A stretch of 64,000 nt of DNA from an uncultured Eubacteriales bacterium (GTDB lineage: Bacteria; Acidobacteriota; Aminicenantia; Aminicenantales; Saccharicenantaceae), in the NCBI GenBank assembly GCA_964458655.1, contig CAYWJT010000001.1:4145-68144 (forward strand). Reading direction: 5' to 3'. Positions within the stretch are counted from its first letter, which is position 1. Each line of letters opens with the position of its first letter. Under the pieces are notes generated by a model. The model made no database searches. It saw only the letters and a program-made list of their open reading frames with translations, and was not told the origin of the DNA. Positions 7,364 to 36,592 of the stretch are shown here, piece after piece. The position numbers and the translations under genes were made by a program.

Positions 7364-8611
7364 ATGGCATTCAGCGAAAGGACACGAGACACCTATCAGG
7401 CCACCTTAAAGGGCATCCAGGACGCCGGCCTGTTCAAGCGCGAGCGCTTCATCCATTCGCCCCAGGGCGCCGACATCGAGGTCGAGTTCCCGGCCGGCGC
7501 GGGACTGCGCAAGGTCATCAACATGTGCGCCAACAACTACCTCGGCCTGTCCAGCCACCCCGAGGTGGTCAAGGCGGCCCACGAGGGCCTCGAGGTCCGC
7601 GGCTACGGCATGTCCTCGGTCCGCTTCATCTGCGGCACCCAGGACATCCACCGCGAGCTCGAGAACAAGGTCACCGAGTTCCTGGGCACCGAGGACACCC
7701 TGCTCTTCCCCTCCTGCATGGACGCCAACGCCGGCGTCTTCGAGGCCGTCCTGACCAAGGACGACGTCATCATCAGCGACCGCCTCGTGCACGCCTCGCT
7801 CATCGACGGCATCCGGCTCTGCAGCGCCCTTCACGACACCTACAAGCACTCCGACATGGCCCATCTCGAGGAGAAGCTCCAGCTCCACGCCGACAAGCGC
7901 TTCAAGCTGGTCGTGACCGACGGCGTCTTCTCCATGGACGGCGACACGGCCAAGCTGGACGAGATGGTCGCCCTGTGCGAGAAGTACGACGCCATGCTGC
8001 TCGTGGACGATTCCCACGCCTCGGGCTTCATCGGCCGGACCGGCCGCGGCACGCACGAGAAGTACGGCGTCGTCGGCAAGATAGACATCATCACCACGAC
8101 CTTCGGCAAGGCCCTGGGCGGCGCGACCGGCGGCTGCGTCTCCGGGCGCCGCGAGCTCGTCGAGATGTGCCGGCAGCGGGCCAGGCCGTACCTTTTCTCC
8201 AACACCATCGCCCCTGTCATCATCTCGGGCATCCTCAAGGTCATGGAGATCGTCACGCGCTCGACCGAGCGGCGCGACAAGCTGGAGAGGAACTCCGCCT
8301 ACTGGCGCAAGGGCCTGACCGAGGCCGGCTTCATCCTCAAGGAAGGCGACACGCCCATCGTGCCGGTCATGCTCTTCAACGCCAAGCTGGCCCAGGACTT
8401 TTCCATGGCCCTCTACGACGAGGGCATCTACGCCATCGGCTTCTTCTTCCCGGTCGTGCCCCAGGGCCAGGCCCGCATCCGGACGCAGATCTCGGCGGCC
8501 CACGAGACCCATCACCTCGACCGGGCGCTCGAGGCCTTCGTCAAGGTCGGGAAGAAGTTCGACATCTTGGGCAAGACCAAGCAGGAGATCGTCGCCAAGT
8601 ACGGGATGTGA
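7364..8611 (+). CDS. PLP-dependent alpha-oxoamine synthase (Kbl / serine palmitoyltransferase / BioF family)
   Basis: Near-colinear with E. coli Kbl: SVRFICGTQDIHRELE, HASLIDGIRL, TDGVFSMDGD, VDDSHASGF, GQARIRTQISAAH. A sphingoid/aminolipid function (Spt-like) cannot be excluded from sequence alone. Confidence 0.8.
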   Translation: MAFSERTRDTYQATLKGIQDAGLFKRERFIHSPQGADIEVEFPAGAGLRKVINMCANNYLGLSSHPEVVKAAHEGLEVRGYGMSSVRFICGTQDIHRELENKVTEFLGTEDTLLFPSCMDANAGVFEAVLTKDDVIISDRLVHASLIDGIRLCSALHDTYKHSDMAHLEEKLQLHADKRFKLVVTDGVFSMDGDTAKLDEMVALCEKYDAMLLVDDSHASGFIGRTGRGTHEKYGVVGKIDIITTTFGKALGGATGGCVSGRRELVEMCRQRARPYLFSNTIAPVIISGILKVMEIVTRSTERRDKLERNSAYWRKGLTEAGFILKEGDTPIVPVMLFNAKLAQDFSMALYDEGIYAIGFFFPVVPQGQARIRTQISAAHETHHLDRALEAFVKVGKKFDILGKTKQEIVAKYGM

Positions 8612-8743
8612 GCGTAACGGCCGTCTCCCGTTGACCGAGGGCGGGGCGGGCGAGGGAGGGCGGCTTCCGCAAGACCCCCGGATCGATGACGCGCGTCTGG
8701 ACCCGGCCCTTGACTTCGCGCCTCCGACAGCGCTAGGATCATC

Positions 8744-10744
8744 TTGGTAAAGGGGAACAAACCGATCATCGGGGGAGGTGTTCACCATGAAGGCACGGGC
8801 AGGGGTTTTTTAGTCGTCGTCCTGGCCCTTTCGGCTTCTCTCCAGGGCGCCAAGGCGAAATGGGTGAAGGTGGGAGCACCTGGCATCAGCACGGTCATGG
8901 CCTTGGCCGTGAGCGGGTCGAACGTCTTCGCCGCGGGCGAAGGGATCTTCCGTTCCCGGGACTGCGGCACGACCTGGGAGGACGTGGGGTCAGGCATCCC
9001 GGCGAAGTCGCTCTTCACCTGTCTCGCCGTCGACGCGTCGCGCGTCTGGGCCGGGTCAGTCGGCGAAGGGGTATTCGTCTTGAATGACGGCGGGAGCTCC
9101 TGGTCGGCGGCCGGCCCGGGGCTGACTGATCTCCGGGTCATGTCCTTGGCCTCGGACGGGACACGCATGTTCGCGGCGACGATGGGCGGCGGCATCTTCG
9201 TCACGGACGACGGCGGCGCGTCTTGGTCCCGGGCCACGTCCGGGCTGCCTGCGAACACCTCGATTAACTGCGTTTTCGCCCACGGGCCGTACCTTTTCGC
9301 CGGATCGGACTATCAGGGCTTCTTCGTGTCACGCGACGGCGGGAAACGGTGGACGGAGATCCGGACGAACATCGAGAAGCAGAACCCGGTCTCCTGCATG
9401 GTCGCGGCGCCGGATGCCTTGTACGCCGGGACCGTCAACGGCGTCTACCGTTCCGATGACGGCGGCCGGTCGTGGGTCAATCCCTGTTCGCCCGTCGAGT
9501 CGAGCCTCTTCGGCGTGCTGCCTGAAACGTCGGTGGTCTCCCTGGCGGCAAGAGGAACGGACCTTTTCGCCGGCACGTGCGGCGCCGGCATCTTCGTTTC
9601 GACCGACAGCGGAAAGAAATGGGCGCGGATCGAACCCGCGCTCAAGCAAGGCGATGTCTACGCCCTGGCGGTGTGCGGCGACCGTCTCTTCGCCGGGACC
9701 ATGTCCGGAGGCCTTTGGCGTCTCTCCCTGTCGGGCGAGGAGCCAGAGGCCGCGGCGCGGAAGACGGCCGAGATCATCTCGCTCGAGGAAGCGGTCAAGA
9801 CGGCGCCTGATGACGCCAAGGCTTGGGCCGACCTGGGCGCCGCCTATGTCTCGGTCAAGATGTTCGATGACGCCATACCGGCCTTTGAACGGGCGTTGGC
9901 CCTGGATCCCAAGGACATCAAGGTCCTGTGCATGTTGGCGAACACCTACGGATTGAACGAAGAGACGGACAAGGCCATCGAAACCTTTGAGCGGGCGACC
10001 CGGCTGAGCCCCGAGGCGGCGCCGGCCTGGTACGGCCTGGGCATCAGCTATAACGCCGCCGGCAGGACGGAGGAAGCCATCAAGGCCCTGAAAAAGGCAA
10101 CGGGCCTGCGTAGCGGGGAGGTGCATCTATGGATCACGCTGGGGCAGGTTTGTGAAGACGCCGAGCTCTTCGATGAAGCCATCGACGCCTACGAGCATGT
10201 GGTCAAGCTGACGCCGGGGGACACGTCGGCTTGGTTCAGACTAGGCGTGAACTATCTAGTGCGGGAACGCACCGCGGACGCGCTCGGCGCGTTCAAAGAG
10301 GCGGTCAAGGTCGGGCCCGACGACCCCATGGCCTGGAACAACATCGGCTACTGCTCCGAACAGCTCGGACGGCTGGACGAGGCCATCGCGGGCTATGAAC
10401 AGGCCGTTAAGCTGAAAACCGACTACGTTCGAGCCTGGGCTAACCTCGGCGTGGCCTATCGGAAAGCCGGGCGTTTCGCCGACGGTGCCGCCGCTTCGCG
10501 GCAGGCGGTCAAGCTCAACCCGAAAGATCCTTACAACTGGATCAACATAGGGGAATGTCACGCCGCGGCCGGCCAGTACGACGACGCCATCGTTGCCTTC
10601 GAACAAGCCGTCAAGCTCGACGCCGAGTCAGCCGAAGCCTGGAAGGCCCTCGGGGAATGCTATGAGAAGACGGGCCGCAAAAAGGACGCCCAGGCCGCCC
10701 TAAAGAAGGCCCGGAAACTGGATCCGGCTCTGTTCAAGAAATAA
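8744..10744 (+). CDS. BNR/Asp-box beta-propeller protein (Ycf48-like) fused to a C-terminal TPR domain; secreted
   Basis: Six or more SxDxGxxW repeats (SRDCGTTWE, NDGGSSWS, TDDGGASWS, SRDGGKRWT, SDDGGRSWV, STDSGKKWA), followed by about 300 aa of TPR. The start codon is uncertain: TTG at 8744 is the first in-frame start before a hydrophobic segment. Confidence 0.7.
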   Translation: MVKGNKPIIGGGVHHEGTGRGFLVVVLALSASLQGAKAKWVKVGAPGISTVMALAVSGSNVFAAGEGIFRSRDCGTTWEDVGSGIPAKSLFTCLAVDASRVWAGSVGEGVFVLNDGGSSWSAAGPGLTDLRVMSLASDGTRMFAATMGGGIFVTDDGGASWSRATSGLPANTSINCVFAHGPYLFAGSDYQGFFVSRDGGKRWTEIRTNIEKQNPVSCMVAAPDALYAGTVNGVYRSDDGGRSWVNPCSPVESSLFGVLPETSVVSLAARGTDLFAGTCGAGIFVSTDSGKKWARIEPALKQGDVYALAVCGDRLFAGTMSGGLWRLSLSGEEPEAAARKTAEIISLEEAVKTAPDDAKAWADLGAAYVSVKMFDDAIPAFERALALDPKDIKVLCMLANTYGLNEETDKAIETFERATRLSPEAAPAWYGLGISYNAAGRTEEAIKALKKATGLRSGEVHLWITLGQVCEDAELFDEAIDAYEHVVKLTPGDTSAWFRLGVNYLVRERTADALGAFKEAVKVGPDDPMAWNNIGYCSEQLGRLDEAIAGYEQAVKLKTDYVRAWANLGVAYRKAGRFADGAAASRQAVKLNPKDPYNWINIGECHAAAGQYDDAIVAFEQAVKLDAESAEAWKALGECYEKTGRKKDAQAALKKARKLDPALFKK

Positions 10745-10775
10745 GGACACGCCGGATCGTCCCGATGAAGAGGAA

Positions 10776-10960
10776 AGCCCTAGCGCCGCCGCGGCGCGGC
10801 CGGCGGCTGCGTCTCCGGGCGCCGCGAGCTCGTCGAGATGTGCCGGCAGCGGGCCAGGCCGTATCTTTTCTCTAACACCATCGCGCCGGTCATCATCTCG
10901 GGCATCCTCAAGCCCCTCGGGTCGATGACGCGCGGCTGGACCCGGTCGCCCTTGACACTG
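10776..10960 (+). pseudogene. Decayed partial copy of the 3' part of the alpha-oxoamine synthase gene, fused to its downstream intergenic sequence
   Basis: About 10796-10908 matches 8128-8240 with 4 mismatches in 113 nt, all at synonymous third codon positions. About 10909-10957 matches 8678-8720, the intergenic region. The intervening 8251-8677 is absent. Confidence 0.8.
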
Positions 10961-11017
10961 TGTTTCAGCCCCCGGGCTTTGAGACGGTGTAGCCTTCCCT
11001 ACTGACGACCTCCCCGT

Positions 11018-11046
11018 TTGACAGGCTCCCGGCCGGGATGTATCTT
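11018..11046 (+). promoter_or_regulatory. Putative sigma-70-type promoter for the M28 peptidase gene
   Basis: TTGACA, then a 17-nt spacer, then TATCTT, about 80 nt upstream of the ATG at 11127. Confidence 0.35.
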
Positions 11047-11126
11047 TTACCGCCTGCGGCTCGGCCGCGGAGAAGTCCGCCTTCCATCTACCGGCCAGCC
11101 GCCCTATCAGCTTAGAGGAGGTCCCC

Positions 11127-13289
11127 ATGTCGAAACGCGCCGCTCCCGCAGTGACGCTCGCGCTCGCGCTCTTTCTGTCAGCGCTGGCCGCTCTGGCCCA
11201 ATACACGCCGTGGCTCTACTGGACGCTCATCCCCAGGGAGCAGATGGACGAGATCATCGGCGAGGCCTCGGGCGAGAACGCCTGGAACACCGTCGCCGAG
11301 ATAAACGCCTTCAACAGGCAGCGGACCGACGAGGAGTTCGCCGCGAACTTCTTCGAGACCAAAGTCGTCTTCGAAAAGCTCCGCAAATACGGGCTGGACG
11401 GAGCCGAGATAGTCGCCTTCCCGGGCGGCGAGGCCTGGCGTCCGCTCCTGGGCGAGCTCTGGGAAGTCAAGCCGGTGCGCCAGAAGCTTGCTTCCATCAA
11501 CGACATGCTGCCCATGCTGGCCTCGGGCAGCGCGACTTCGGACGTCACGGCCGAGCTGGCCTGGGTCGGCCGGGGCACGCCCAAGGAGGTCGCCGACGCC
11601 AAGGTCGAGGGCAAGATCGCGGTCACGGAAGGCAACCTGATGACGGCCTACACGGCCGCGGTGCAGCAGGGCGCCCTGGGCATCGTCTCGATCAGCCAGT
11701 CCCGGCCTTACTTCGACCCGCTGCAGATGCCCTGGACCGGCATCTCTTTCCGCGGCATGGGCTACGAGAGCGTGACGGGACAGGCAGGCGCCACCCGGGC
11801 CAAGCCGCAGGAGCCCAGGTTCGCCTTCCAGCTGCCGGTGCGCGAAGGGGATTTTCTCAAGCGCAGGCTGCTTGCCAACGAGAAGATAACGGTCCGGGCC
11901 CGGGTCGAGTCGAAAATGGAGCAGGCCGACCTGGAGAACGTGACCTGCCGCATCCCCGGCACGGACCCGGGAGCCGGCGAAGTCATCCTTTCGGCCCATC
12001 TTTTCGAGGGTTTCGCCAAGCAGGGCGCCAACGACAACATTTCAGGGAGCGCGGCCATCCTGGAGACGGCCCGAGTCCTCAACACCCTGATCTCGGAGGG
12101 TCGCCTGCCCCGGCCGAGGCGCACCATCCGCTTCATCTGGGGCCCGGAGTTCTCGGGCATCGGCAAGTGGGTCGAGGCCAACAAGGAACTCATGGAAAAG
12201 ACCCTCTGCAACATAAACCTGGACATGGTCGGGGAGTGGCTGTCGAAGAACCAGTCCTTCTTCTGCCTGATGCGGACGACCTACGGCAACCCCCATTACA
12301 TAAACGACGTCATGGAGAACTACTACCGCTTCGTCGGCGAGGGCAACCGGGAGCGCATCCAGAACCGGAGCACGCCGGCGCGAGTCGTGCCGGTGCGCGT
12401 GGTCGCTCCTTTCGGCGCCGACGAGCCTTTCTACTATTCCATCGAGACCCACTACGGCGCCTCCGACCACGAGGTCTTCAACGACTGGGGCGTGGGCGTC
12501 CCCGGCGTCATGATGATCGCCTGGCCGGACAAGTGGTATCACACCTCGGGCGATGTGGCCGACAAGTCCGACCCGACCCAGCTCAAAAGGGCGGTGGCCA
12601 TCGCCGCCGCCGGCGCCTACACCGTGGCCGCCGCCGGCGCGGATGAGGCGGCGGACATCGCCTCCGAAGTCGCGTCCAACGCCTCACGGCGGCTCGGCCA
12701 TGCCCTGGCGCTGAGCATCGACGCGCTCAACAGGACCTCCGCCGAGACTTTCGGCGAGGATTACAAGTTCGCCCGCTGGACCATCGAGGCCGTCGTCATC
12801 AACGAGAAGGAAACGCTGGACTCGGTCCTGGAGCTCGCGCCCTCGAGCCGCGAGCTCGCGGCCCACGTCGCCCGCCTGAAAAAGGCCGTCGAGACCGCGG
12901 GCGCCGCGGAGCTCGCGGCGGTGGACGCCCACATGCTCACGGTCGCCGGCCGGCTCGGCCTGAAGCCCGCGGCTATAGTCCTTTCGAGCGAAGAGAAGCA
13001 GGCGGCCAGGCTCGTGCCCAGGCCGACCGCCAGGGTTCGCGAAGGCGGCTACAACGGCTACCGCAAGTACATCAACCAGGTCCCGGCCGCCGAGCGGGCC
13101 AAGTTCCCGGTGCAGGGCAAAGGCCTTTCCCTGGCCTCGAGCGGCGAGCTCGAGCTGCTTGTCAACGGCAAGCACAGCGCTCTCGACATCAAGAAGATGC
13201 TCGACGCCCAGCACGAGAGAAGGTCCACGGTCAAAGCGGTGCTCAACCACCTGCAAATCCTGAAGCTCGCCGGCCTCGTGGAGTGGTGA
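11127..13289 (+). CDS. Secreted M28-family zinc aminopeptidase with a PA-type insert domain
   Basis: AGAGGAGG RBS. Signal peptide MSKRAAPAVTLALALFLSALAALAQ. HLFEGFAKQGANDNISGSAAILE and downstream His/Asp/Glu ligand motifs are typical of M28. Confidence 0.75.
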   Translation: MSKRAAPAVTLALALFLSALAALAQYTPWLYWTLIPREQMDEIIGEASGENAWNTVAEINAFNRQRTDEEFAANFFETKVVFEKLRKYGLDGAEIVAFPGGEAWRPLLGELWEVKPVRQKLASINDMLPMLASGSATSDVTAELAWVGRGTPKEVADAKVEGKIAVTEGNLMTAYTAAVQQGALGIVSISQSRPYFDPLQMPWTGISFRGMGYESVTGQAGATRAKPQEPRFAFQLPVREGDFLKRRLLANEKITVRARVESKMEQADLENVTCRIPGTDPGAGEVILSAHLFEGFAKQGANDNISGSAAILETARVLNTLISEGRLPRPRRTIRFIWGPEFSGIGKWVEANKELMEKTLCNINLDMVGEWLSKNQSFFCLMRTTYGNPHYINDVMENYYRFVGEGNRERIQNRSTPARVVPVRVVAPFGADEPFYYSIETHYGASDHEVFNDWGVGVPGVMMIAWPDKWYHTSGDVADKSDPTQLKRAVAIAAAGAYTVAAAGADEAADIASEVASNASRRLGHALALSIDALNRTSAETFGEDYKFARWTIEAVVINEKETLDSVLELAPSSRELAAHVARLKKAVETAGAAELAAVDAHMLTVAGRLGLKPAAIVLSSEEKQAARLVPRPTARVREGGYNGYRKYINQVPAAERAKFPVQGKGLSLASSGELELLVNGKHSALDIKKMLDAQHERRSTVKAVLNHLQILKLAGLVEW

Positions 13290-13324
13290 ACGCCGCCGGG
13301 TTTAGTGATAGAATAATAATCTTT

Positions 13325-14884
13325 ATGACCATGAGTAAAGCGCTTAACCGCGTCCTGGCCGCGCTCCTGGCGGGGACGGCCCTGCTCGCAGGCGGCGCCT
13401 GCGCCCGGCTCGAGCCGCGGTTCCGCAACGTCATCCTGTTCATCGGCGACGGGATGTCGGTCGAGTGCCAGGTGTCCCTGAGCCGCTACCTCTACGGACG
13501 GGACGACGGGCTGTCGTGGCATTCCCTGCCGGGCAGGGCGTATCTCGCCACCTGGGACGTCACGGCTTACAATATCCGCGCCCGCAAGGAAAAGAAGCCC
13601 CTTTACCGGGCCGGCGCCTTCGACCCGCGGCTCGGATACGACGCGGCCAGGGAAGGGCGGACCCCGCCCCCGCTCTCCGCCGCCGGGCCGGGGCCTTCGT
13701 TCCGGCTGCCGGCCACGGACTCGGCCTCGGCGGCCACCGCCTTCGCGGCAGGCATCAAGACCGACAGCGGGAACATCGCCTGGCTTCCTGGGGATCCCGA
13801 GAACGGCCGCGTCAGGACCGTCGTGGAGGAATTCCGGGAGCGGCGCGGCGGAGCCGTCGGCGTAGTCACCACGGTGCCGTTCAACCACGCCACCCCGGCC
13901 GCTTTCGTGGCGCACAACAAGAACCGGAGCAATTATTACACCGGTTACAGAGGCTTTACCGGCACCGGGCTGGCCGACGAGATCATCCTCGAGACCAGGC
14001 CCGACGTGGTCATAGGCGGCGGCCACCCGCTGCTCGACAACCCGGGGTTCGACCAGAAAAAGGGCTACATCTCGGAAAGACTGCTGACCCTTCTCCGCGG
14101 CTCCGAAGAATACGTGTTCGTGGAAAGGGAGCCGGGTGTTGACGGCGGCCGGGCCCTCCGGTCCGGCGCCGAGCGGGCCGCGTCCGGCGGGCGGAAACTG
14201 TTCGGCCTGTTCGGCGGCGATGGGGGCAGTTTCGAACTGCCCGAGCCGGCCGATGACCCGGGCCGGCCGGCCTTCACCAGGCCGACCCGCGAGAACCCGA
14301 CGCTGGCCGAGGCGACGGTCGCCGCCCTGCAAGTCCTGTCCTCCCGGGGACGGGGCTTCTTCCTGATGGTGGAACAGGGCGATATCGACTGGGCTAACCA
14401 TGACAACGACTTCCGCCGCATGGTCGGCGCCATGTACGACCTGGAAGAGGCCGTCAAGGCCGCCCGCGAGTTCATCGACAGGCCGGGGGACGCCGTGGAC
14501 TGGGCCGACACGGTCTTCGTCGTCACGGCCGACCACGGCACCGGCGGCCTGCGCCTCAACCCGGAAAAGCCGCTCGGGCCCGGCGACCTGCCTGCCCAGT
14601 TCCCCTACGACCCCAAGAAGATGCCGCCGCCGGGGAGCGACAGGCTCATCAACGGGAACGGCAACGGCAAACCCCCGGTCAAGAAGGCCTTCCTTTCGCC
14701 CTACGTGTACCCCGACGGCGAGGTCGAGTACTTCACGATCGGCCACACCAACGAGCTCGTGACGCTCTCGGTGTCCGGGCCGGCCTGGAAGCACTTCCTC
14801 GGGTTCGAAGGCCTCTGGTACCCCGGCCCCATCATCGACAACACCCAGGTTCACTCGGCCGTCCGCAAGGCCCTGGGCTTCTGA
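13325..14884 (+). CDS. Alkaline phosphatase family protein, lipoprotein
   Basis: LLAGGAC lipobox. LFIGDGMSVE is the PhoA-type active-site motif. Also FNHATPAAF and VTADHG. The start is ATG 13325 or 13331. Confidence 0.7.
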   Translation: MTMSKALNRVLAALLAGTALLAGGACARLEPRFRNVILFIGDGMSVECQVSLSRYLYGRDDGLSWHSLPGRAYLATWDVTAYNIRARKEKKPLYRAGAFDPRLGYDAAREGRTPPPLSAAGPGPSFRLPATDSASAATAFAAGIKTDSGNIAWLPGDPENGRVRTVVEEFRERRGGAVGVVTTVPFNHATPAAFVAHNKNRSNYYTGYRGFTGTGLADEIILETRPDVVIGGGHPLLDNPGFDQKKGYISERLLTLLRGSEEYVFVEREPGVDGGRALRSGAERAASGGRKLFGLFGGDGGSFELPEPADDPGRPAFTRPTRENPTLAEATVAALQVLSSRGRGFFLMVEQGDIDWANHDNDFRRMVGAMYDLEEAVKAAREFIDRPGDAVDWADTVFVVTADHGTGGLRLNPEKPLGPGDLPAQFPYDPKKMPPPGSDRLINGNGNGKPPVKKAFLSPYVYPDGEVEYFTIGHTNELVTLSVSGPAWKHFLGFEGLWYPGPIIDNTQVHSAVRKALGF

Positions 14885-14938
14885 CATTCCCGCGCGGTCC
14901 GGAAATAATCTCGGGCTCCTTGAATCGCGCGCCGCGGG
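14829..14938 (+). repeat. Left copy of a ~110-bp direct repeat: the last 55 nt of the phosphatase gene plus about 55 nt downstream
   Basis: atcatcgacaacacccaggttcac...ggcttctgacattccc... recurs at 17664-17773. Confidence 0.8.
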
Positions 14939-15303
14939 TGAGGGGGCATTTAGGGACTCGCGCGGCGGCCGACAGCGTGCCCTGCCACAGATCAATAAAG
15001 GCTTGAAATCGGCGTTCTTTTTATTATTATGAAATTATGACGTTGGGAAAAGGAAGGGTTTTCTGGGTAAACTTTCTTTTGTGCCTCATAGGGAGTGGGT
15101 TGTTTTTCTTCTCAGGATTCAGGTACTTTCATAATTCAGGTATCCGGGACTTCTCAATTGATGACTTGCCGTCATGTGCGATAGATGAATCCGGCAAGAT
15201 ATTCACAAGAAATTCCATTAAAGGGAAAGGCAGTTCTGATATATTTTAGCGGACAATTCTTCGCTTTCCTATATGGCCTTGAAAAAAAGGGAGGGTCAGG
15301 TCG

Positions 15304-16332
15304 ATGAATAAAGCCGCCGAACATAATGCCGTGGCTATATTGATGCTCCTGGTCATTTCAGCGGCCATGGCAATGAGCGAATGCAAAAAAACATCTGGAA
15401 TTGAAGCCCGGCTTGAACTGACATCCCATTTTCCTTCCGAGGCCCAAGACGAGAGATCGATCTGGCTCAACCAGGCCGTTGCCATGGGCGAGTCCGCCGA
15501 CGGCAGGTTCTATGTATGTAATAATCAGGAAAAGACGGTTTCGATATTCGACAGGAACGGTCGCTTTATTAGGAAATTCGGCCGGCCCGGCCAGGGCCCC
15601 GGAGATTTTCAAATGATCCAGAAAATAGTCTGCGATACGGGGGCGATCTGGATAATGGATTCTATGAAACAAGAAATCGGGCTTTATGATCCAGACGGTT
15701 CATATGTCCGCCATATCAAGCTTTTTAAGTCATATCAGGATATATGGATATCCCCGGACAAAAGAATATTCGCTATACCCAGGCCGAGGGCGGGCTCGAA
15801 TCTGGTTGATGTCATTGATGACACCGGAAAGCTTCTATATTCGTTCGGGGAGCCGGTCAAGTTTTCAGGCTCATTCTCAAATAACATCCTTAACAGCGCA
15901 AAAATAGCCGGGGACGGGCGGAGCATTGTCCTGTTGTTTGTCTCTTACCCATTGGCAAGAAAGTACGGACGCGACGGATCACTGATAAAGGAATGGTCAT
16001 TTGATGAAATACCGGAAGTCAATGAAAAGGGCCAGGAGAACATCGAGCGGCTCAGAAATTACAATCCCGGCAGGACCGGCTATTCCCGTATATTCGAGGC
16101 TGTGGAGAGCAAGAACGGCAGCTGGTATTTTTTGCGCAACAGGAAAAGCGGCATCGATATCATAAAAACAGACGACGAGTTCCGATTAAGAAGGATATAC
16201 CGGTATGAGGTGACGGATGACGGCGGATATTATGCCATGGATATGGAAATCGAAACGGCTCCTGCCGAAAGATTCTATATTCTTCGTTGGGTCCCTATGT
16301 CCAGGGTCGAGGTGTTTACGCCGAAAGAATAG
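15304..16332 (+). CDS. NHL-repeat / 6-bladed beta-propeller lipoprotein, paralog 1
   Basis: GGAGGG RBS. Lipoprotein signal ...AMAMSEC. FGRPGQGPGDF is an NHL-type repeat. It is similar in length (342 aa) and architecture to paralog 2. Confidence 0.7.
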   Translation: MNKAAEHNAVAILMLLVISAAMAMSECKKTSGIEARLELTSHFPSEAQDERSIWLNQAVAMGESADGRFYVCNNQEKTVSIFDRNGRFIRKFGRPGQGPGDFQMIQKIVCDTGAIWIMDSMKQEIGLYDPDGSYVRHIKLFKSYQDIWISPDKRIFAIPRPRAGSNLVDVIDDTGKLLYSFGEPVKFSGSFSNNILNSAKIAGDGRSIVLLFVSYPLARKYGRDGSLIKEWSFDEIPEVNEKGQENIERLRNYNPGRTGYSRIFEAVESKNGSWYFLRNRKSGIDIIKTDDEFRLRRIYRYEVTDDGGYYAMDMEIETAPAERFYILRWVPMSRVEVFTPKE

Positions 16333-16619
16333 CAAGGAGGCCGCTCCTCTTGCACACACATTTGTTGGTGCACGGGAGACAATATTTGGCAGTGGGACGA
16401 ATGCTGCGGCTACTGTTATAACAGAGAAATGGGGCTCTGGCTGGACTGCTGCAATAATACTTGCGGCAATAATTGATGCCCGGACCGCCTTAACTTCCGA
16501 CCCGACGATTCCCTATCCTGAGCCCATCAGGGTAAAATCATAAAGGTGGGCTATCCCGGCTGCTCATGCAGTGAGAAATACTACCGGTCCATGTCGGGTA
16601 TAGGAAAGGAGCGGTATCC

Positions 16620-17648
16620 ATGAAGTCATCGAAGTATGCACGGCAGATGATGTTATTCGCCGGGCTTTTGCCGATGGTCATAAGTTGCGGCGGGCCGAGA
16701 CAGGAAACGATAAAAGTGCAACCGATAGAGATAGTCGCTTCGTTCCCTGGAGAAGAGCTTTCCGGTCAGAGCGTATTCTTGAACGGGGCCCTTTATTTCG
16801 CGCATGACGATCAGCGGACTTTTTTCATTTCGAATACTAGAGAAGGGAACATCCTTCGGTTTGATGCGGAAGGCAATTATGTTGAGACAATCGGCCGCAA
16901 GGGCCAGGGCCCGGGAGAACTATCATATATCAACGATATAATGGTGATTGACGATGAAATAGCTGTTCAGGACATCGGGAACCATAAAATTCAGTTCTTC
17001 AGCAAGGAGGGGAAGCCTCGGGACAGTTTTCGCACGTTTAAGACCTATCGCGGCATGGCTTATGATAAGAAGAGGGGCTTGATCTATGCCGCTCCGATGC
17101 TCAGCAGGCCGGATGAGGAGCTCGTTGACGTGTTGGATCTCAACGGGAAGCTTATACGCTCCTTTGGCAAGCCTCTTGAGTTCGAGCGGAAATGGACGCA
17201 ATTGAATATGGTTAATCTTTCCCTTACCGATGGCGACGAGCTGCTTTTGGCCTTTGTCTTTTTCCCCATAATCAGGAAATATAGCCAGGAGGGGAACCTC
17301 CTGACGGAAAAGCACATCGACTACGGCCCCTGGCGAGAAAAAGAGGCGAATAATATCGCGGCTTATAAAGACAGTTTGGCGAGTGCGATCAACCCGTCTT
17401 TCTATGCGGTAATGAATGCGATCAGGAATTGGAAACGGCGGCTTTTTATTTTAAGCTTGCTGCCGGAAAGAACCATCCTGGAATTGGACGCGGCACTCCG
17501 CGTCAAGAGTGTCTATCTTGATGCGAACCGGAGCGATTATTTCGCCGTTGATTTCATTGTCAGTGAAGATGAGGGGGGACTGAAGTTTTATGTCCTGCAG
17601 GTTATGCCCGAAAACGTAGTCGACGTCTTCGGCTATAAAAAATACTAA
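16620..17648 (+). CDS. NHL-repeat / 6-bladed beta-propeller lipoprotein, paralog 2
   Basis: AAGGAG RBS. Lipoprotein signal LLPMVISCGG. IGRKGQGPGEL NHL repeat. The conserved blocks are colinear with paralog 1. Confidence 0.7.
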   Translation: MKSSKYARQMMLFAGLLPMVISCGGPRQETIKVQPIEIVASFPGEELSGQSVFLNGALYFAHDDQRTFFISNTREGNILRFDAEGNYVETIGRKGQGPGELSYINDIMVIDDEIAVQDIGNHKIQFFSKEGKPRDSFRTFKTYRGMAYDKKRGLIYAAPMLSRPDEELVDVLDLNGKLIRSFGKPLEFERKWTQLNMVNLSLTDGDELLLAFVFFPIIRKYSQEGNLLTEKHIDYGPWREKEANNIAAYKDSLASAINPSFYAVMNAIRNWKRRLFILSLLPERTILELDAALRVKSVYLDANRSDYFAVDFIVSEDEGGLKFYVLQVMPENVVDVFGYKKY

Positions 17649-17663
17649 ATGAAAGGAAGGTAT

Positions 17664-17773
17664 CATCGACAACACCCAGGTTCACGCGGCCGTCCGCAAG
17701 GCCCTGGGCTTCTGACATTCCCTCACGGTCCGGGATTATTTTCGGCACCCCTTGAATCTCGCGCCGCGGCGAT
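17664..17773 (+). repeat. Right copy of the ~110-bp direct repeat
   Basis: Its first 55 nt differ from the left copy at 1 position (tcg to gcg). The following non-coding 55 nt are about 70% identical to the left copy. Confidence 0.8.
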
Positions 17774-29268: not shown

Positions 29269-31356
29269 ATGCGGCGTTGTTCACGCCTGAAAAGGACCCT
29301 TCGGGCGGTCGTAGCGCTCGCCGCGCTGGCGGCGGTTGCGGCCGCGGCCGGGCTTGCGGCCCAGGAGGCCTCGAAGTATCACAACTACGCCGATATGACA
29401 TCGGCCTTCAAGACCCTCGTGGACGGCCACGCCGACCTGGCCGCGATGACGTCGGCCGGGAAGACGGCCGGCGGCCGCGACGTCTGGGTCATCGAGCTCG
29501 GGCTCAAGCGCGGCACCCCGTTCGGGACGCGGCCGGGCCTTCTGATCGCCGCCGGTTTCGAGGGCGACCATCTCATCGGCAGCGAGCTCACGCTCGAGAT
29601 CTGCCGGCATCTTGTCGACGGCTATCCGGCCGATCCCGCGGTCAAAAAAACCCTGGAGGAATCGGTCGTCTATATCTTCCCGCGCCTGAACCCGGACGCG
29701 GCCGAGGGCTATTTCGCTCCGGTCAAGTCCGGCCGCCGGACGACCTCGAGCCCGCGCGACGACGACAACGACGGCCGCGTTGACGAGGACGGGCCCGAGG
29801 ACCTCAACAAGGACGGATACATAACGGTCATGCGGGTCAAGGCCCCCGACGGCCAGTACATCATCGACCCCGAGGAGCCGCGGCTGATGAAGAAGGCCGA
29901 CCCGCAGAAAGGCGAGCGGGGCGTCTACAAGATCCACTGGGAAGGCGTCGACAACGACGGCGACGGCTTCGTCAACGAGGACCCGCCGGGCGGGACCGAC
30001 CTCAACCGCAACTTCATGCACGAATATCCCTATTACAAGCCCGACGCCGGACCGCACATGGTCAGCGAAAGGGAAAGCCGGGCCCTGATGGACTGGATGG
30101 TGAAGCACCGGAACGTCGCCGCGATCCTGACCTTCGGCGAGAGCGACAACCTGATCTCGCCGCCGGCCTCGGCGACCCGCTTCGGCCAGTCGCGCGAGCT
30201 CGACCTGCTCGCCTTCGCCGAAGCCTCCGTGGCTGCCGCCAGGACCGTGGGCATGATACAACCGCCTTCGCGCTTCGGCGGCAGGCGCGGGTTCGGCGGG
30301 GGCGGCATGGAGGAGTTCTCGTTCGAGATGATGGCCGGAAGTCTCCGGCAGATGTTGAGCGGCGGGCAAACTCAGGCCCAGACGGCCGAGGGCGGCCGTT
30401 TCCGGATGCCGGAGCGCCGCCCCGAGACCTCGTTGAACGCCTCCGACCTTGAATACTTCCGCCAGGCCGGCGAGAAATACCGGGAGCTCACCGGGATACG
30501 ACAGGCGCTCTACGTCAGGATGCCCCAGGGCGCTTTCTTCCAGTACGGCTATTTCCAGTTCGGCGTGCCCTCGTTCTCGACCCCGGGCTTCGGCTCAGCC
30601 GCGGCCGAGCCGCCCATGATGCGGCGGCCTGGCATTTCGGGCACGGAGGGCGGGGCCCAGGCCGGCCGCGCGGCGGGCCAGACCGATAGGAGCGGCGGCG
30701 CTTCCCAGACCGCCCAGCAGTTCATGCAGATGATGCAGTCGGCCGGAGGGGGAGGCCAGATAGCCAGGCTCTTCCAGGCTCAGGCGGGCGGCGCCGGACA
30801 GGCCGCGACGGCTGAGCCCGGCATAGACAAGCAGCTCCTCAAGTGGCTGGACGCCGAGAAAGCCGACGGCTTCGTGAACTGGACGGCCTTCAAGCACCCC
30901 GACCTTGGGGAAGTGGAAATAGGCGGGTTCAAGCCCTACGCCTGGGCCAACCCGCCGGCGGCCAAAATAGGCGAGCTGGCCAAGGGCCACGCCGGCTTCG
31001 CGCTCTATCTCGCCGGCCTCTTCCCGAAGCTCAACGTCGCTTCGGTTGAAGCGACCGCCCTCGGCGGCGGGCTGTTCAGGGTCAAGGCCGAGGTCGAGAA
31101 CAGCGGCTTCTGGCCGACGGCCCTCGCCCAAGGCGTGACCTCACGGAGCGTAAAGCCGGTCATGGTCCAGCTTAGCGTCAAGCCGGAGGACATCATCGCC
31201 GGCGGCAACAAGACCAACTTCATCCCCAGCCTGGCCGGCGCGGGAGGCCGGGCCGGGTTCGAGTGGATCATACGCGGCCGGGCCGGGGACAGGATAGAGG
31301 TCCTGGCCGTGTCCGAAAAGGGCGGCCGGGCGAGCGCCGGCATTGTGTTGAAGTGA
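29269..31356 (+). CDS. Secreted M14-family zinc carboxypeptidase with Asp-rich calcium-binding-like inserts and a Gly/Gln/Ala-rich region
   Basis: AGGAGG RBS. Signal MRRCSRLKRTLRAVVALAALAAVAAAAG. The M14 core aligns with the next gene. It has DDDNDGRVDEDGPEDLNKDGYI and DNDGDGFVNED. Confidence 0.75.
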   Translation: MRRCSRLKRTLRAVVALAALAAVAAAAGLAAQEASKYHNYADMTSAFKTLVDGHADLAAMTSAGKTAGGRDVWVIELGLKRGTPFGTRPGLLIAAGFEGDHLIGSELTLEICRHLVDGYPADPAVKKTLEESVVYIFPRLNPDAAEGYFAPVKSGRRTTSSPRDDDNDGRVDEDGPEDLNKDGYITVMRVKAPDGQYIIDPEEPRLMKKADPQKGERGVYKIHWEGVDNDGDGFVNEDPPGGTDLNRNFMHEYPYYKPDAGPHMVSERESRALMDWMVKHRNVAAILTFGESDNLISPPASATRFGQSRELDLLAFAEASVAAARTVGMIQPPSRFGGRRGFGGGGMEEFSFEMMAGSLRQMLSGGQTQAQTAEGGRFRMPERRPETSLNASDLEYFRQAGEKYRELTGIRQALYVRMPQGAFFQYGYFQFGVPSFSTPGFGSAAAEPPMMRRPGISGTEGGAQAGRAAGQTDRSGGASQTAQQFMQMMQSAGGGGQIARLFQAQAGGAGQAATAEPGIDKQLLKWLDAEKADGFVNWTAFKHPDLGEVEIGGFKPYAWANPPAAKIGELAKGHAGFALYLAGLFPKLNVASVEATALGGGLFRVKAEVENSGFWPTALAQGVTSRSVKPVMVQLSVKPEDIIAGGNKTNFIPSLAGAGGRAGFEWIIRGRAGDRIEVLAVSEKGGRASAGIVLK

Positions 31357-31370
31357 ACGAGGAGGCTGCC

Positions 31371-33173
31371 ATGAAACGCTTCGAGATAAAAGCTTCTTTC
31401 AGGATAGCGGTCCTCATCTCCCTCCTGACCGCGCTCGCGGCCTTCAACCCGGCGCGGGTCTCCGGGCAGAAGACTTCCGACCCGCAGTTCAAGGTCAAGC
31501 TGGACTTCGACCGCTGGCACGACGTCCCGGAGCTCTACGCGGACATGAAGAGGCTGGCCGACGCCTTCCCCAGGTTCCTCAAGCTGCAGTCGCTCGGCAA
31601 AAGCTACGAGGGCCGCGACATCATGCTCATGACCATAAACAACCCGGCCACGGGGCCGGAGTCGGCCAAGGCCGCCATGTACATCGAAGCCAACGTGCAC
31701 GGCAACGAGATCCAGGGCGCCGAGGTCTGTCTTTACACCATCTGGTACCTGATGGAGAACTACGGCCGGCTCGAGGACATCACCAGGCTGGTCGATGAGC
31801 GGGTCTTCTACGTCGTGCCGACGGTCAACCCGGACGGCCGCCAGTACTTCTTCGAGGGGCCGACGGGCAGCACCCGCTCCGGGCACGTGCCCGTGGACGA
31901 CGACGGCGACGGCCTGTTCGACGAGGACCCGCCCGAGGACATCAACGGCAACGGCATCGTCGAGCAGATACGCATGTGCGTTCCCGGCCGCGGCAACTAC
32001 AGGATAAGCTCCCTCAACCCGAATATCATGGAGCCGGTGCCCTACGGCGAGAAAGGCGACTACATCCTGCTCGGGAGCGAGGGCCTGGACAACGACGGCG
32101 ACGGCCTGGTCAACGAGGACCAGCCCGGCGGCTATGACCCCAACCGCAACTGGGGCTCGGACTGGCAGCCCAATTACGTCCAGTCCGGCGCCATGGATTA
32201 CCCGTTCGAGCTGCCCGAGGTCCGGGCCGTCAACGAGTTCCTCATGGCTCACCCCAACATCGCGGGCGTCCAATCCTACCACAACTTCGGCGGCATGATC
32301 CTCAGGGGGCCGGGCGCCGAATCGAGCGGCGAGTACCCGATGAGCGACGTCAATTTCTACGACGAGCTCGGGAAAAACGGCGAGCGCATCCTGCCCTTCT
32401 ACCGCTACATCGTCATCTGGAGCGGCCTTTACACCGTGCACGGCGGCTTCATCGACTGGACCAACGACGGCCTGGGCATCGCCTCCTTCTCGAACGAGCT
32501 CTGGAGCAGCGAACAGTACTTCACCAGCCAGGCCCTCAAGGACCAGCAGAGGGACCCGTCGAGCCCGATCGCGCCGAACGTATCCCGTTACTACTTCGAC
32601 CGCTACCTCGAGTTCGGCGACCAGTTCGTCGAGTGGAAGCCCTTCGACCACCCTCAGTACGGCAAGGTCGAGATGGGCGGGGTCTGGAAGAGGTTCCAGG
32701 GCCGGGTGCCGCCGAGGTTCATGAACGAGGAGCTCTGCCACAGGAACATGGCCTTCACCCTCTACCACGCGGCCGAGATGCCCATGGTGACGATGGGGGA
32801 GGCCTCGGTCGAGCGGGTCGGCGGCGACGTCTACCGGCTCTTCCTGGACGTGTCCAACCCGAAGATGATCCCGACCGTCATGGCCAAGGCGGCCCAGAAC
32901 AACGTGGTCCGGCCGGACCTGCTGCTCGTCGAGGGCAAGAAAGTCGACGTCATCTCGGTGGGCCTGGTCGACAACAAGGAAATCTACAAGGTCAAGCCGT
33001 CGGTGGTGCAGACGATCGACCAGAAGGATTTGAAAAGGCTGATCATAAGGAACGGGCTGCCGGGCCGGACGACCAGGACCTTCATGTACCTAGTCAAGGG
33101 GTCCGGCGACGTGACGCTCACATACGACAGCGTCAAGGGCGGCCGGAAAAGCAAGACCGTGACCTTGAAATAG
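31371..33173 (+). CDS. Secreted M14-family zinc carboxypeptidase, paralog of the preceding gene
   Basis: GAGGAGG RBS. Signal MKRFEIKASFRIAVLISLLTALAA. The HGNEIQG motif contains zinc-ligand residues. It has DDDGDGLFDEDPPEDINGNG and DNDGDGLVNED. Confidence 0.75.
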   Translation: MKRFEIKASFRIAVLISLLTALAAFNPARVSGQKTSDPQFKVKLDFDRWHDVPELYADMKRLADAFPRFLKLQSLGKSYEGRDIMLMTINNPATGPESAKAAMYIEANVHGNEIQGAEVCLYTIWYLMENYGRLEDITRLVDERVFYVVPTVNPDGRQYFFEGPTGSTRSGHVPVDDDGDGLFDEDPPEDINGNGIVEQIRMCVPGRGNYRISSLNPNIMEPVPYGEKGDYILLGSEGLDNDGDGLVNEDQPGGYDPNRNWGSDWQPNYVQSGAMDYPFELPEVRAVNEFLMAHPNIAGVQSYHNFGGMILRGPGAESSGEYPMSDVNFYDELGKNGERILPFYRYIVIWSGLYTVHGGFIDWTNDGLGIASFSNELWSSEQYFTSQALKDQQRDPSSPIAPNVSRYYFDRYLEFGDQFVEWKPFDHPQYGKVEMGGVWKRFQGRVPPRFMNEELCHRNMAFTLYHAAEMPMVTMGEASVERVGGDVYRLFLDVSNPKMIPTVMAKAAQNNVVRPDLLLVEGKKVDVISVGLVDNKEIYKVKPSVVQTIDQKDLKRLIIRNGLPGRTTRTFMYLVKGSGDVTLTYDSVKGGRKSKTVTLK

Positions 33174-35254: not shown

Positions 35255-36592
35255 TCAGAAGCTGATGGAGATGCTGCGGCCGCCGCTGCCGAACCTGGGG
35301 TTGACCACGTTGCTCTTGAGCGAGCCGAAGCTGAAGTTCAGCCCCGCTGAGAAAAAATAATCGTAAGAGGTCTGGAGCTGCTTCTGGCGCAGCAGCACTT
35401 CCTCGTAGGACGCCCCGCCCCGGGGCAGGAAGAGCTGGTCGTGGATGCGCGAGGCGCTGCCGCCGATCTCGAAGCTCAGGCCCTTCCAGACGCGCAAGGA
35501 AACTTCGCCGTTGAGCTCCAGCCTGTATTTCTTGAGGTCGTGGAGGTAATGGGAGCCCTTCAGGCCGGCGCTGATCGTGCCCCATGGCCTCTTTATCTCG
35601 TATTCGAAAGAGAGCGATTCGCTCAGCCTGGTCTCGGCCGTCTTGAAGAAGATGGTCTCTTCAATGTAGCGGACCGACGAAAGGCCGAACAGGTACAGGA
35701 TGCGAAGCTGTCTTTTGGTGGACTCGTCATAGGGGAAGATGTCGTATTCCAGCGCCGGGGCCAGGCTGCCTCCGAGCTTCAGGTTCTGGTAGGTCGAGGA
35801 ATTGACGCTGACGAAGGCCCCCGCCGACCAGTGCCGGCCTAGGCTGAAGACGAACAGGCCCGAATAGCCGTAGCCGTGCGACTTGCTGGTGACGGTGGAG
35901 CCGTCGAAGCTGAATTCCTGGCGCTGGAAGTTAGCGAAGACCGACATGCGGATCTTCTGCTCCGGCGTCACCCGGTTGGCCGAGAAGGACCCGTAGTACA
36001 TGCCGTCCTTGTACTGCTCCTGGCCGTCGAGGAAGCTGCTGGCGTTCAGGTTGAAGACCCAGAATCTCCAGGGGTCGACGACCGAGGTCGGCTTGACCTG
36101 CTCCTGGAACGAGACGGAGATGTGCTTGGCCAGCGGCGTCTTGGCGGCGTAGCGGAGGAGGCCGAGCCGCAGCGCCTGGGTCAGGGCCCGGTCCTTATCC
36201 TCTGGCGCGGCCGGTTCCCCGGCCGGGACCTCAATCGTGTTGCGGTCGCCCTCGAAACGCCCCCGGCCCTGGAAGGCGAGCGCGAGGCACGGCCGGCCCT
36301 CCTTTTCCGACGGCTTCACGGACACGACGACGTCGGCCTCTTCCGGGGCGGGCACGAACGTCGCGAAAGGTATCTCCGAGCGCAAGAGGTCGGCGTTGAA
36401 CCGCGGCATGTCCACGAAAACCCGCAGCGGTTCGCCGTTGCCGGCCGCCTGGGCGTCGGCGCCCGCCGCGCCGGACAGGACGGCGGCCAGAACGGTCAGG
36501 GCCGCGACGCAGGTCATGAAGGCCTCGAGCGCCGGCCCAACTGCCCGAAGTCCGGTCCCGCGCTTCCCGCGTGTCTTTCCGGTCTCGCTCAT
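35255..36592 (-). CDS. Predicted outer-membrane beta-barrel protein, paralog 1 of 2
   Basis: It has a signal peptide, alternating amphipathic beta-strand pattern, and terminal ...SISISF. It is about 30-35% identical to the next gene over its full length. Confidence 0.6.
   Translation of the reverse strand: MSETGKTRGKRGTGLRAVGPALEAFMTCVAALTVLAAVLSGAAGADAQAAGNGEPLRVFVDMPRFNADLLRSEIPFATFVPAPEEADVVVSVKPSEKEGRPCLALAFQGRGRFEGDRNTIEVPAGEPAAPEDKDRALTQALRLGLLRYAAKTPLAKHISVSFQEQVKPTSVVDPWRFWVFNLNASSFLDGQEQYKDGMYYGSFSANRVTPEQKIRMSVFANFQRQEFSFDGSTVTSKSHGYGYSGLFVFSLGRHWSAGAFVSVNSSTYQNLKLGGSLAPALEYDIFPYDESTKRQLRILYLFGLSSVRYIEETIFFKTAETRLSESLSFEYEIKRPWGTISAGLKGSHYLHDLKKYRLELNGEVSLRVWKGLSFEIGGSASRIHDQLFLPRGGASYEEVLLRQKQLQTSYDYFFSAGLNFSFGSLKSNVVNPRFGSGGRSISISF

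Follow-up and report, generated by a model that had tools for sequence, protein, structure and literature searches.

Several recombination routes are known to leave acquired DNA between direct repeats of its target. In experiments with Escherichia coli, the integration of circular DNA by a single crossover produced 109-950 bp duplications of the homologous locus, and such events were more frequent than true homology-facilitated illegitimate recombination (HFIR) (PMC3240628). Displacement of the HFIR type, with orphaned 3' regions, has been proposed for type VI secretion system (T6SS) and Rhs loci (PMC5361080). Islands bounded by attL and attR have direct repeats on either side that include a portion of the target gene, which itself stays intact. 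Template switching of the fork-stalling and template-switching or microhomology-mediated break-induced replication type (FoSTeS/MMBIR) places an insert copied from another locus between direct duplications of arbitrary length. Here, we compare these systems with a locus in a 64-kb stretch of contig CAYWJT010000001.1 from an uncultured Aminicenantia bacterium, the whole of which we call the window. At this locus, a gene for a BNR/Asp-box propeller protein with TPR repeats (BNR-TPR) lies between the gene of an alpha-oxoamine synthase (AOS) and that of an M28 peptidase, and it is followed by a second, incomplete piece of the AOS gene, hereafter the relic (coordinates are collected in Table 1). 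We are confident that this second AOS piece is the scar of an insertion, and we give about even credence to one specific, in-place and microhomology-mediated route by which it may have formed. The locus is an ordinary recombination scar, a further example of a known scar type.

The two copies of the repeat around the BNR-TPR ORF lie in the same orientation, and chance cannot account for their similarity (E values in self-BLAST: main block, 1e-50; second block, 7e-9). Formal alignment and self-BLAST thus bear out an earlier note on this DNA, which had reported a flanking direct repeat from the letters alone. Block 1 pairs 8118-8239 with 10791-10912 at an offset of 2673 (122 nt, 5 mismatches), with an unambiguous portion at 8127-8239 and 10800-10912 (113 nt), and its perfect blocks measure 8, 64, 8, 11, 2 and 24 nt. 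The first of these, GCGGCGCG (8118-8125), may be junction microhomology. Block 2 pairs 8674-8714 with 10913-10956 and contains 4 mismatches and a 3-nt indel. The coordinates first given for the coding part (10796-10908 and 8128-8240) are about 5 nt out of register; the missing stretch had been placed at 8251-8677 and is in fact 8240-8673 (434 nt); and copy 2 measures 166 nt in total instead of the ~185 bp originally assigned to the repeat. The repeat starts 494 nt before the AOS stop codon. Its two registers (offsets 2673 and 2239) share 12 nt at 10901-10912 (GGCATCCTCAAG versus GGCTTCCGCAAG), which indicates that an imperfect microhomology was the site at which copy 2 lost 8240-8673; the deletion junction falls in a pair of 12-mers, GGCaTCCtCAAG (8228-8239) and GGCtTCCgCAAG (8662-8673), that agree at 10 of 12 positions. 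Judging from this alignment, the original target duplication would have been 8118-8714, ~600 bp in length, and would later have been trimmed.

The empty site is preserved in related genomes. The closest relative, L085 (Joint Genome Institute (JGI) 3300032173), has an AOS that is 99% identical at the amino acid and 98.6% at the nucleotide level, and there the AOS stop codon is followed by the equivalent of 8612-8708 and then directly by the equivalent of 10946-11024 upstream of the M28 gene, with no insert. In L084, a 269-kb contig with an AOS of 96% amino acid identity, the order is AOS, a 393-nt spacer and M28, and in L006, L007 and L071, too, M28 comes after AOS and a BNR-TPR gene is missing. 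The arrangement that the earlier note had proposed to look for in relatives, AOS directly followed by M28, is therefore found in all five of these, and the inserted segment is missing from each. With the site empty in the closest relatives, the BNR-TPR gene is best read as a lineage-specific insertion with target duplication, and the gene and the relic would have arrived together in this lineage.

The inserted segment resembles a locus in another organism. As a full-length homologue search with the BNR-TPR protein was swamped by TPR matches (best 38%), we used exhaustive HMMER and a search with the N-terminal half instead. These lead to the closest homologue, P0248, a 361-aa stand-alone BNR protein that is 65% identical in amino acid sequence to the protein of the insert; the homologous stand-alone locus is represented by L090/L091 and a JGI 22.9-kb contig. 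The two proteins have in common the signal peptide region and a C-terminal KARKLDPxLFKK (...KARKLDPELFKK), and P0248 is without the whole TPR array (~860 nt; window 9823-10682 versus L090 3040-3052). The breakpoints of the array fall in repeat-like sequence, which points to an in-frame TPR expansion or deletion between the BNR-TPR and P0248 lineages. By BLASTN, similarity to L090 begins at 8707 and amounts to 73.5% nucleotide identity over 8707-9822 and 78% over 10683-10754. The context of P0248 consists of a peptidase M16 gene, a 537-aa gene, the BNR gene and a convergent PIN/MazE pair, on contigs of 66% GC; neither the PIN/MazE pair nor the 537-aa neighbor occurs in the window. Scans of JGI metagenome contigs and of viral contigs with the BNR-TPR protein gave no match.

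At the left junction, we observe an 8-nt microhomology, CCCTTGAC (8707-8714), that is common to target, source and junction. It is found in the native BNR promoter region of L090 (...GTTCCCTTGACTTCG...) and in copy 2 at 10949-10956 (...GTCGCCCTTGACACTG...), and it provides the -35 element of a promoter-like site, TTGACT-18-TAGGAT (8710-8739), which begins within the final bases of copy 1 and reaches across the join into the insert. The right end of the insert, ...GGAAAGCCCTAGCGCCGCC, is joined to GCGGCGCGGCCGG, where AOS itself reads ...GGCAAGGCCCTGG GCGGCGCGACCGG. An imperfect match between GGAAAGCCCTAG and GGCAAGGCCCTGG (about 10/13) and the 8-nt GCGGCGCG patch make up the similarity here, and microhomology at this junction is possible. 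The 666-aa ORF begins at a TTG (8744) that lacks a Shine-Dalgarno sequence. The only good Shine-Dalgarno sequence with an ATG (GGGGGAGG...ATG at 8787; region 8774-8815) is one base out of frame and opens a frame that stops after 8 codons, and a single extra T in the T6 run at 8806-8811 would give MKARAGVFLVVVLALSAS..., a normal signal peptide as in P0248. The alternatives are a recent frameshift (or a slippery run) in the gene and a start at TTG 8744; all assemblies agree on the sequence.

We propose that a complete transcription unit, consisting of promoter, BNR-propeller/TPR gene and short tail, was copied from an L090-like locus and entered the region between AOS and M28 through illegitimate recombination guided by microhomology. 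The likeliest routes would be replicative template switching and, on replicating DNA, double illegitimate end joining. The left join would have been made through CCCTTGAC and the right join ~600 bp upstream, inside AOS at ~8118-8126 and possibly at the GCGGCGCG patch, such that 8118-8714 would have been written twice and both flanking genes left intact. In the same event or later, the downstream copy would have lost 434 bp between the imperfect 12-mers, and both copies would have drifted from then on, with AOS taking silent changes only (codons 283 and 284) and the relic two C>T changes at GC-rich third positions (the third-position GC content of the AOS gene is 96%). The left-junction microhomology and the possible right one fit such a one-step, illegitimate and duplicative insertion. 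Outcomes that duplicate rather than delete the target probably survive because they spare the flanking genes. The likeness to FoSTeS/MMBIR-type events extends to the copied insert, the direct duplication of arbitrary length and the microhomology (8 nt on the left and possibly 8-12 nt on the right), and the 434-nt deletion fits a multi-switch event; the locus differs in that the process is a proposed one and that the repeats are by now 3.5-12% diverged, which implies that the event is old.

The differences between the copies speak to where the duplication arose. Within the coding-derived part, the four internal differences are exactly as described in the earlier note, all third-position and synonymous: codon 276 TAC>TAT, 279 TCC>TCT, 283 GCC>GCG and 284 CCT>CCG. 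They are clustered in 25 nt (8191-8215), after the 64-nt perfect block. The accompanying statement that every difference is synonymous holds for these four and overlooks a fifth, 8126 A>G (codon 255 ACC>GCC, Thr255Ala), which falls at position 1 of its codon and nine bases inside the 5' edge, and which may be part of the junction rather than a substitution. At codons 283 and 284, the relic state (GCG and CCG) is shared by L085 and L084, and it is the resident AOS that is derived; these changes are silent because the working AOS is under purifying selection. TCT at codon 279 and GCC at codon 255 occur in the relic alone. Codon 276 reads TAT in the relic, L084, L004, L006 and L007 and TAC in the window and L085. 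The branch of the relic itself accounts for no more than two silent changes, both C>T, in addition to the Thr>Ala difference at the edge. The purifying selection that the earlier note had read from the silent changes applies to codons 283 and 284, which changed in the functional AOS.

For this segment, 27% of random substitutions are synonymous, as are 45% of G/C>A/T transitions. If only the relic had changed, and neutrally, the probability of four synonymous changes out of four would be 0.005-0.04, and to this extent the earlier note is supported, as decay of copy 2 without selection would seldom give such a result. If the duplication took place in situ and both lineages evolved, with the functional copy accepting only silent changes, the same outcome has P = 0.03-0.15, and at least 4/5 with the edge difference included has P = 0.10-0.38; on the relic branch alone, neutral change gives P = 0.07-0.21 for 2/2 and 0.17-0.43 for 2/3. 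The step taken from the silent-only pattern to the allele of a related genome does not follow: the pattern is no proof of a foreign allele, since every change contributed by the functional copy is silent. The general caution is that synonymous-only differences between a gene and a nearby fragment do not, taken alone, reveal a foreign allele.

An allelic origin nevertheless remains the strongest alternative, and we consider it possible, although we lean toward a duplication that arose in this lineage. Under an allelic origin, DNA of a related strain that already carried BNR-TPR beside AOS would have recombined through the AOS anchor, either by a Campbell-type single crossover with a circularized fragment or by HFIR with its illegitimate end inside the resident AOS ("3'-end displacement"). 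The copies would then have diverged while both were in working genes, which would explain the silent-only coding changes (4/4 of the internal differences) and the faster change of the intergenic part. The coding-to-intergenic divergence ratio of ~0.23 matches what is expected of such alleles and, for the in-place model, lies marginally on the low side. At codon 276, the relic agrees with L084 and not with the window or L085, and the copy-to-copy divergence of 3.5% is of the same order as that between the window and L085 (1.4-2.3%). The check suggested in the earlier note, whether the fragment is close to the AOS of a relative, gives 3 mismatches over 122 nt against the L085 allele and 5 against the resident gene.

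Both allelic routes have precedents in the studies cited above, a single crossover in PMC3240628 and a proposed HFIR displacement in PMC5361080. Campbell-type integration likewise leaves its cargo flanked by the duplicated homologous locus, and the 109-950 bp range brackets the ~600 bp seen here; this route presupposes a circle in which BNR-TPR is already fused to the 3' part of AOS, and we found no such donor or plasmid. In HFIR "C-terminal (3'-end) displacement" at Rhs, contact-dependent inhibition (CDI) and T6SS effector loci (PMC5361080), a new module lies downstream of a conserved gene portion, as here, and an orphaned 3' fragment of the resident gene is left behind it. Those loci differ in encoding polymorphic toxins in which the displaced piece is a variable toxin tip with its immunity gene, whereas here the displaced piece is a fragment of a housekeeping enzyme without a partner gene and the copies are near-identical.

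Against the allelic origin stands its need for a donor with BNR-TPR joined to the AOS flank, which is seen in none of >100 close AOS homologues, 80 genome loci and two JGI metagenome scans. Outside the contigs of this lineage itself, no donor carrying the cargo on the same flank was found, which under thin sampling is a weak negative, and a degenerate DNA pattern for the peptide of the fragment matched only the L085 contig. Under an allelic origin, moreover, the two illegitimate junctions would have had to form on separate occasions; in the one-step model they form together. For two of the four silent changes, it is the resident, functional AOS that demonstrably carries the derived state. Mismatches between the window and L085 are evenly spread, with 18 in the 1248-nt AOS gene, and we looked for a recombination tract in this profile and found none. 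Over 113 nt, the window AOS, the relic and L085 are about equidistant (2, 2 and 4 differences). The counts on which the allelic pattern depends are tiny (4-5 coding and 4 intergenic differences). An intermediate with an undeleted second copy was not found in the public data searched.

Several observations weigh against the in-place route. Codon 276 is the sole parsimony-informative site, and it places the relic outside the pair formed by the window and L085 unless there was homoplasy. The coding part is less diverged than the intergenic part, with P about 0.02-0.04 over two events under the in-place expectation, and the allelic model fits this contrast. In this event, we count 4-5 differences in 113-122 coding-derived nt versus 4 in 42 intergenic nt plus the indel; in a second event nearby, the contrast is 1 in 54 coding nt versus 9 in 53 intergenic nt plus a gap; and for both events together, it is 6/176 coding-derived versus 13/95 intergenic (Fisher P=0.0025). 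On the relic branch at this locus, there are 3 changes in 33 intergenic nt versus 2 in 113 coding-derived nt. At the right junction, the match is imperfect, and BLASTN follows the source no farther than 10754. Finally, no second, native BNR-TPR copy is seen within the window. Three points nevertheless weaken the contrast in divergence as an argument for the allelic model: intergenic regions of this clade change much faster than silent sites (window versus L085, 12-20% intergenic divergence versus 1.4% over the whole AOS), gene conversion from the functional copy would preferentially homogenize the long coding block, and some of the intergenic differences beside the left junction, the 3-nt indel among them, may have been brought in with the source sequence.

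Two further lineage-specific inserts with a like layout lie in the same 18 kb, such that the duplications around the three measure 48, ~600 and 108 nt. One insert (1127-3441) is flanked by 48-nt direct repeats (1079-1126 and 3442-3489, 92% identical), is missing from L084 and carries a sulfatase-TPR gene on the minus strand (1263-3410). Its repeat spans the stop codon of an AP-endonuclease-family gene, a spacer and the last codons of a convergent methyltransferase gene. The window methyltransferase has 277 aa versus 280 in L084, owing to a CAG>TAG change in the functional repeat copy (3469-3489 versus 1106-1126; L084 6078-6100), and the non-functional copy retains CAG. The other insert (14938-17661) is flanked by repeats at 14831-14937 and 17662-17769 (108 nt, 90% identical), is missing from L084 and L086, and carries a 70-aa ORF and two DUF5128 beta-propeller genes at 48% GC versus 65% for the window. 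Its repeat is made up of the last 54 nt of the alkaline phosphatase gene and 53 nt downstream, with 1 non-synonymous difference in the 54 coding nt and 9 differences and a gap in the 53 intergenic nt. The TPR halves of the two TPR-bearing inserts have only generic TPR similarity (29-36%). A shared end motif of the three inserts was considered and set aside as probable chance: the only candidate is the 10-mer CACAGATCAA (3431-3440 and 14986-14995), in opposite gene contexts, which has exactly two occurrences in the window, each near the end of a flanked insert, and 5/100 shuffles reach its 1-mismatch count.

These neighbors bear on whether a site-specific or transpositional element was at work, with the repeats as attL/attR of an integrase islet targeting the AOS 3' part or as a very long transposon target duplication, a reading we find very improbable. 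Direct repeats do flank the cargo, the upstream copy leaves the target gene intact in the manner of islands inserted into the 3' ends of genes, and three such inserts occur within 18 kb. Yet no recombinase or transposase and no terminal inverted repeats were found in or near any of the three inserts; the AOS-associated insert has no integrase and codes only for the BNR/TPR protein, and no recombinase domains occur in its neighbors within 10 kb. The duplications differ in length and have no shared core, the statistics of CACAGATCAA are weak, and there is no phage or viral link. The attL/attR islands share with this locus the direct repeats with part of the target gene around acquired DNA and the intact target gene; they differ from it in that no integrase is present here, the repeat starts far inside the gene, and the three lengths differ without a common core. 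An insertion sequence or other transposon was rejected, as there is no transposase, no terminal inverted repeat and no short, fixed-length target duplication. Variable duplication lengths and the lack of a recombinase instead point to a length-free, illegitimate process.

It is conceivable, but in our judgment unlikely, that the lineage repeatedly gains whole transcription units without a recombinase, by a route in which the target is always duplicated and the flanking genes are spared; one of the three inserts carries clearly foreign cargo of 48% GC. If this were true, cassettes could leave the chromosome as circles by way of the flanking repeats and enter sister strains again through homologous recombination, and such homology-driven "cassette" traffic would also account for allele-like differences between repeat copies. 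The case itself is ordinary and serves as a well-resolved example of a compact bacterial genome gaining a gene without breaking its neighbors, and three like-built inserts in 18 kb give a modest and testable point of entry to how an uncultured phylum gains genes. A literature search for such a pattern in Aminicenantes found nothing. Other diverged direct repeats in the window (35279-35860 and 36639-37220, 65% over 595 nt; 29941-30013 and 32079-32151, 84% over 73 nt and encoding a DNDGDG-VNED-like motif) look like paralogous coding sequence, not insertion scars.

There is little reason to think that the relic is kept by selection, whether as a 55-aa ORF (10838-11005) or as a regulatory RNA or DNA element upstream of M28, and we regard this as highly doubtful. 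Starting at the internal Met of VEMCRQ, the ORF stays in the AOS frame over 25 codons, and selection at the peptide level would suit a silent-only pattern; two of the four silent changes, though, belong to the AOS gene and not to the relic. No Shine-Dalgarno or promoter-like site was found ahead of the ORF, which has no Pfam match. The relic has no Rfam match, is negative in a terminator test and folds no better than its shuffles (z=0.16). Downstream of the relic, the promoter-like site before M28 (TTGACA-17-TATCTT, 11018-11046), which is conserved in L084 and L085, is untouched, and relatives do without the element altogether. The relic shows no sign of function and is probably non-functional.

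An assembly artefact, in which a chimeric join of strain variants from a metagenome created a false duplicate, is scarcely credible, even though the window derives from metagenome data and the differences between the copies resemble strain-level single-nucleotide polymorphisms: the same sequence recurs at 100% identity in another JGI sample and in an independent k=31 assembly, and copy 2 is a deletion derivative (434 nt gone) rather than a collapsed or duplicated read path. JGI contig L001 carries the whole structure at 100% identity, and L002, from a second JGI sample, covers 7126-9971 at 100% identity. In SRR12686701 (Logan, k=31), the site is covered by two contigs, 8371-10863 and 10834-14885, that break with a 30-nt (k-1) overlap exactly at the ends of the 64-nt perfect block, which is how a de Bruijn graph behaves with a true repeat and argues that both copies truly coexist. 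The collapse or duplication artefact that the earlier note had named as a possible refutation is therefore excluded by independent assemblies.

The locus belongs to a conserved gene neighborhood (Table 1). The first 18.6 kb of the window are identical to JGI metagenome contig Ga0484859_0000867, and the gene order is ACPS, acyl-CoA synthetase, acyl carrier protein (ACP), AOS, the BNR-TPR ORF, M28 peptidase and alkaline phosphatase. AOS is the final gene of a conserved ACPS / acyl-CoA synthetase / ACP / AOS cluster, and its homologues are 77-99% identical in amino acid sequence. Judged by its relatives, the organism is a Candidatus Aminicenantes bacterium.

Table 1. Features of the AOS/M28 locus, with positions in the window
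Feature	Positions	Strand	Remarks
Acyl-CoA synthetase	5351-7054		
ACP	7085-7345		
AOS gene (alpha-oxoamine synthase, annotated "glycine C-acetyltransferase")	7364-8611	+	415 aa, intact; ORF and Pfam PF00155
Repeat copy 1, coding part (AOS codons 252-292)	8118-8239	+	ungapped versus 10791-10912, 117/122 identical
Stretch absent from copy 2	8240-8673	+	434 nt: AOS 3' end and first 62 intergenic nt
Repeat copy 1, intergenic part	8674-8714	+	matches 10913-10956
Inserted segment, ~2.08 kb (putative)	8715-10790	+	promoter-like site, BNR/TPR ORF, 46 nt downstream
BNR/Asp-box propeller and TPR ORF	8744-10744	+	666 aa; Pfam
Repeat copy 2, AOS-derived fragment (codons 252-292), relic	10791-10912	+	no 5' or 3' gene context; TBLASTN, AOS residues 254-303
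Repeat copy 2, intergenic part	10913-10956	+	continues into ancestral M28 upstream region
Ancestral AOS-M28 intergenic remainder	10957-11126	+	untouched by insertion
M28 peptidase gene, ancestral downstream neighbor of AOS	11127-13289	+	Pfam PF04389
Alkaline phosphatase	13283-14884		

The same neighborhood is a hot spot of gene-content change in relatives. In L004, a Gpr1/Fun34/YaaH protein and a transporter of the major facilitator superfamily (MFS) are encoded between AOS and M28 (L004 9249-11694); in L086, AOS leads straight to the phosphatase and M28 is missing (L086 3508-3585); and in L084 (15454-18586), a 990-aa gene without a Pfam match follows the phosphatase, and the alpha-2-macroglobulin gene is missing. 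Upstream, the order of acyl-CoA synthetase, ACP and AOS is conserved (window 4800-8611; loci L004-L083), with ACPS in front in the window, L084 and L085. A second AOS paralogue, 51-61% identical, is often adjacent. The AOS protein itself is 77-88% identical across metagenome-assembled genomes labelled Aminicenantes, Bacteroidales, Zixibacteria, Cloacimonadota, KSB1 and others, and the cross-phylum conservation of the cluster is unusually high for a putative lipid-head-group pathway.

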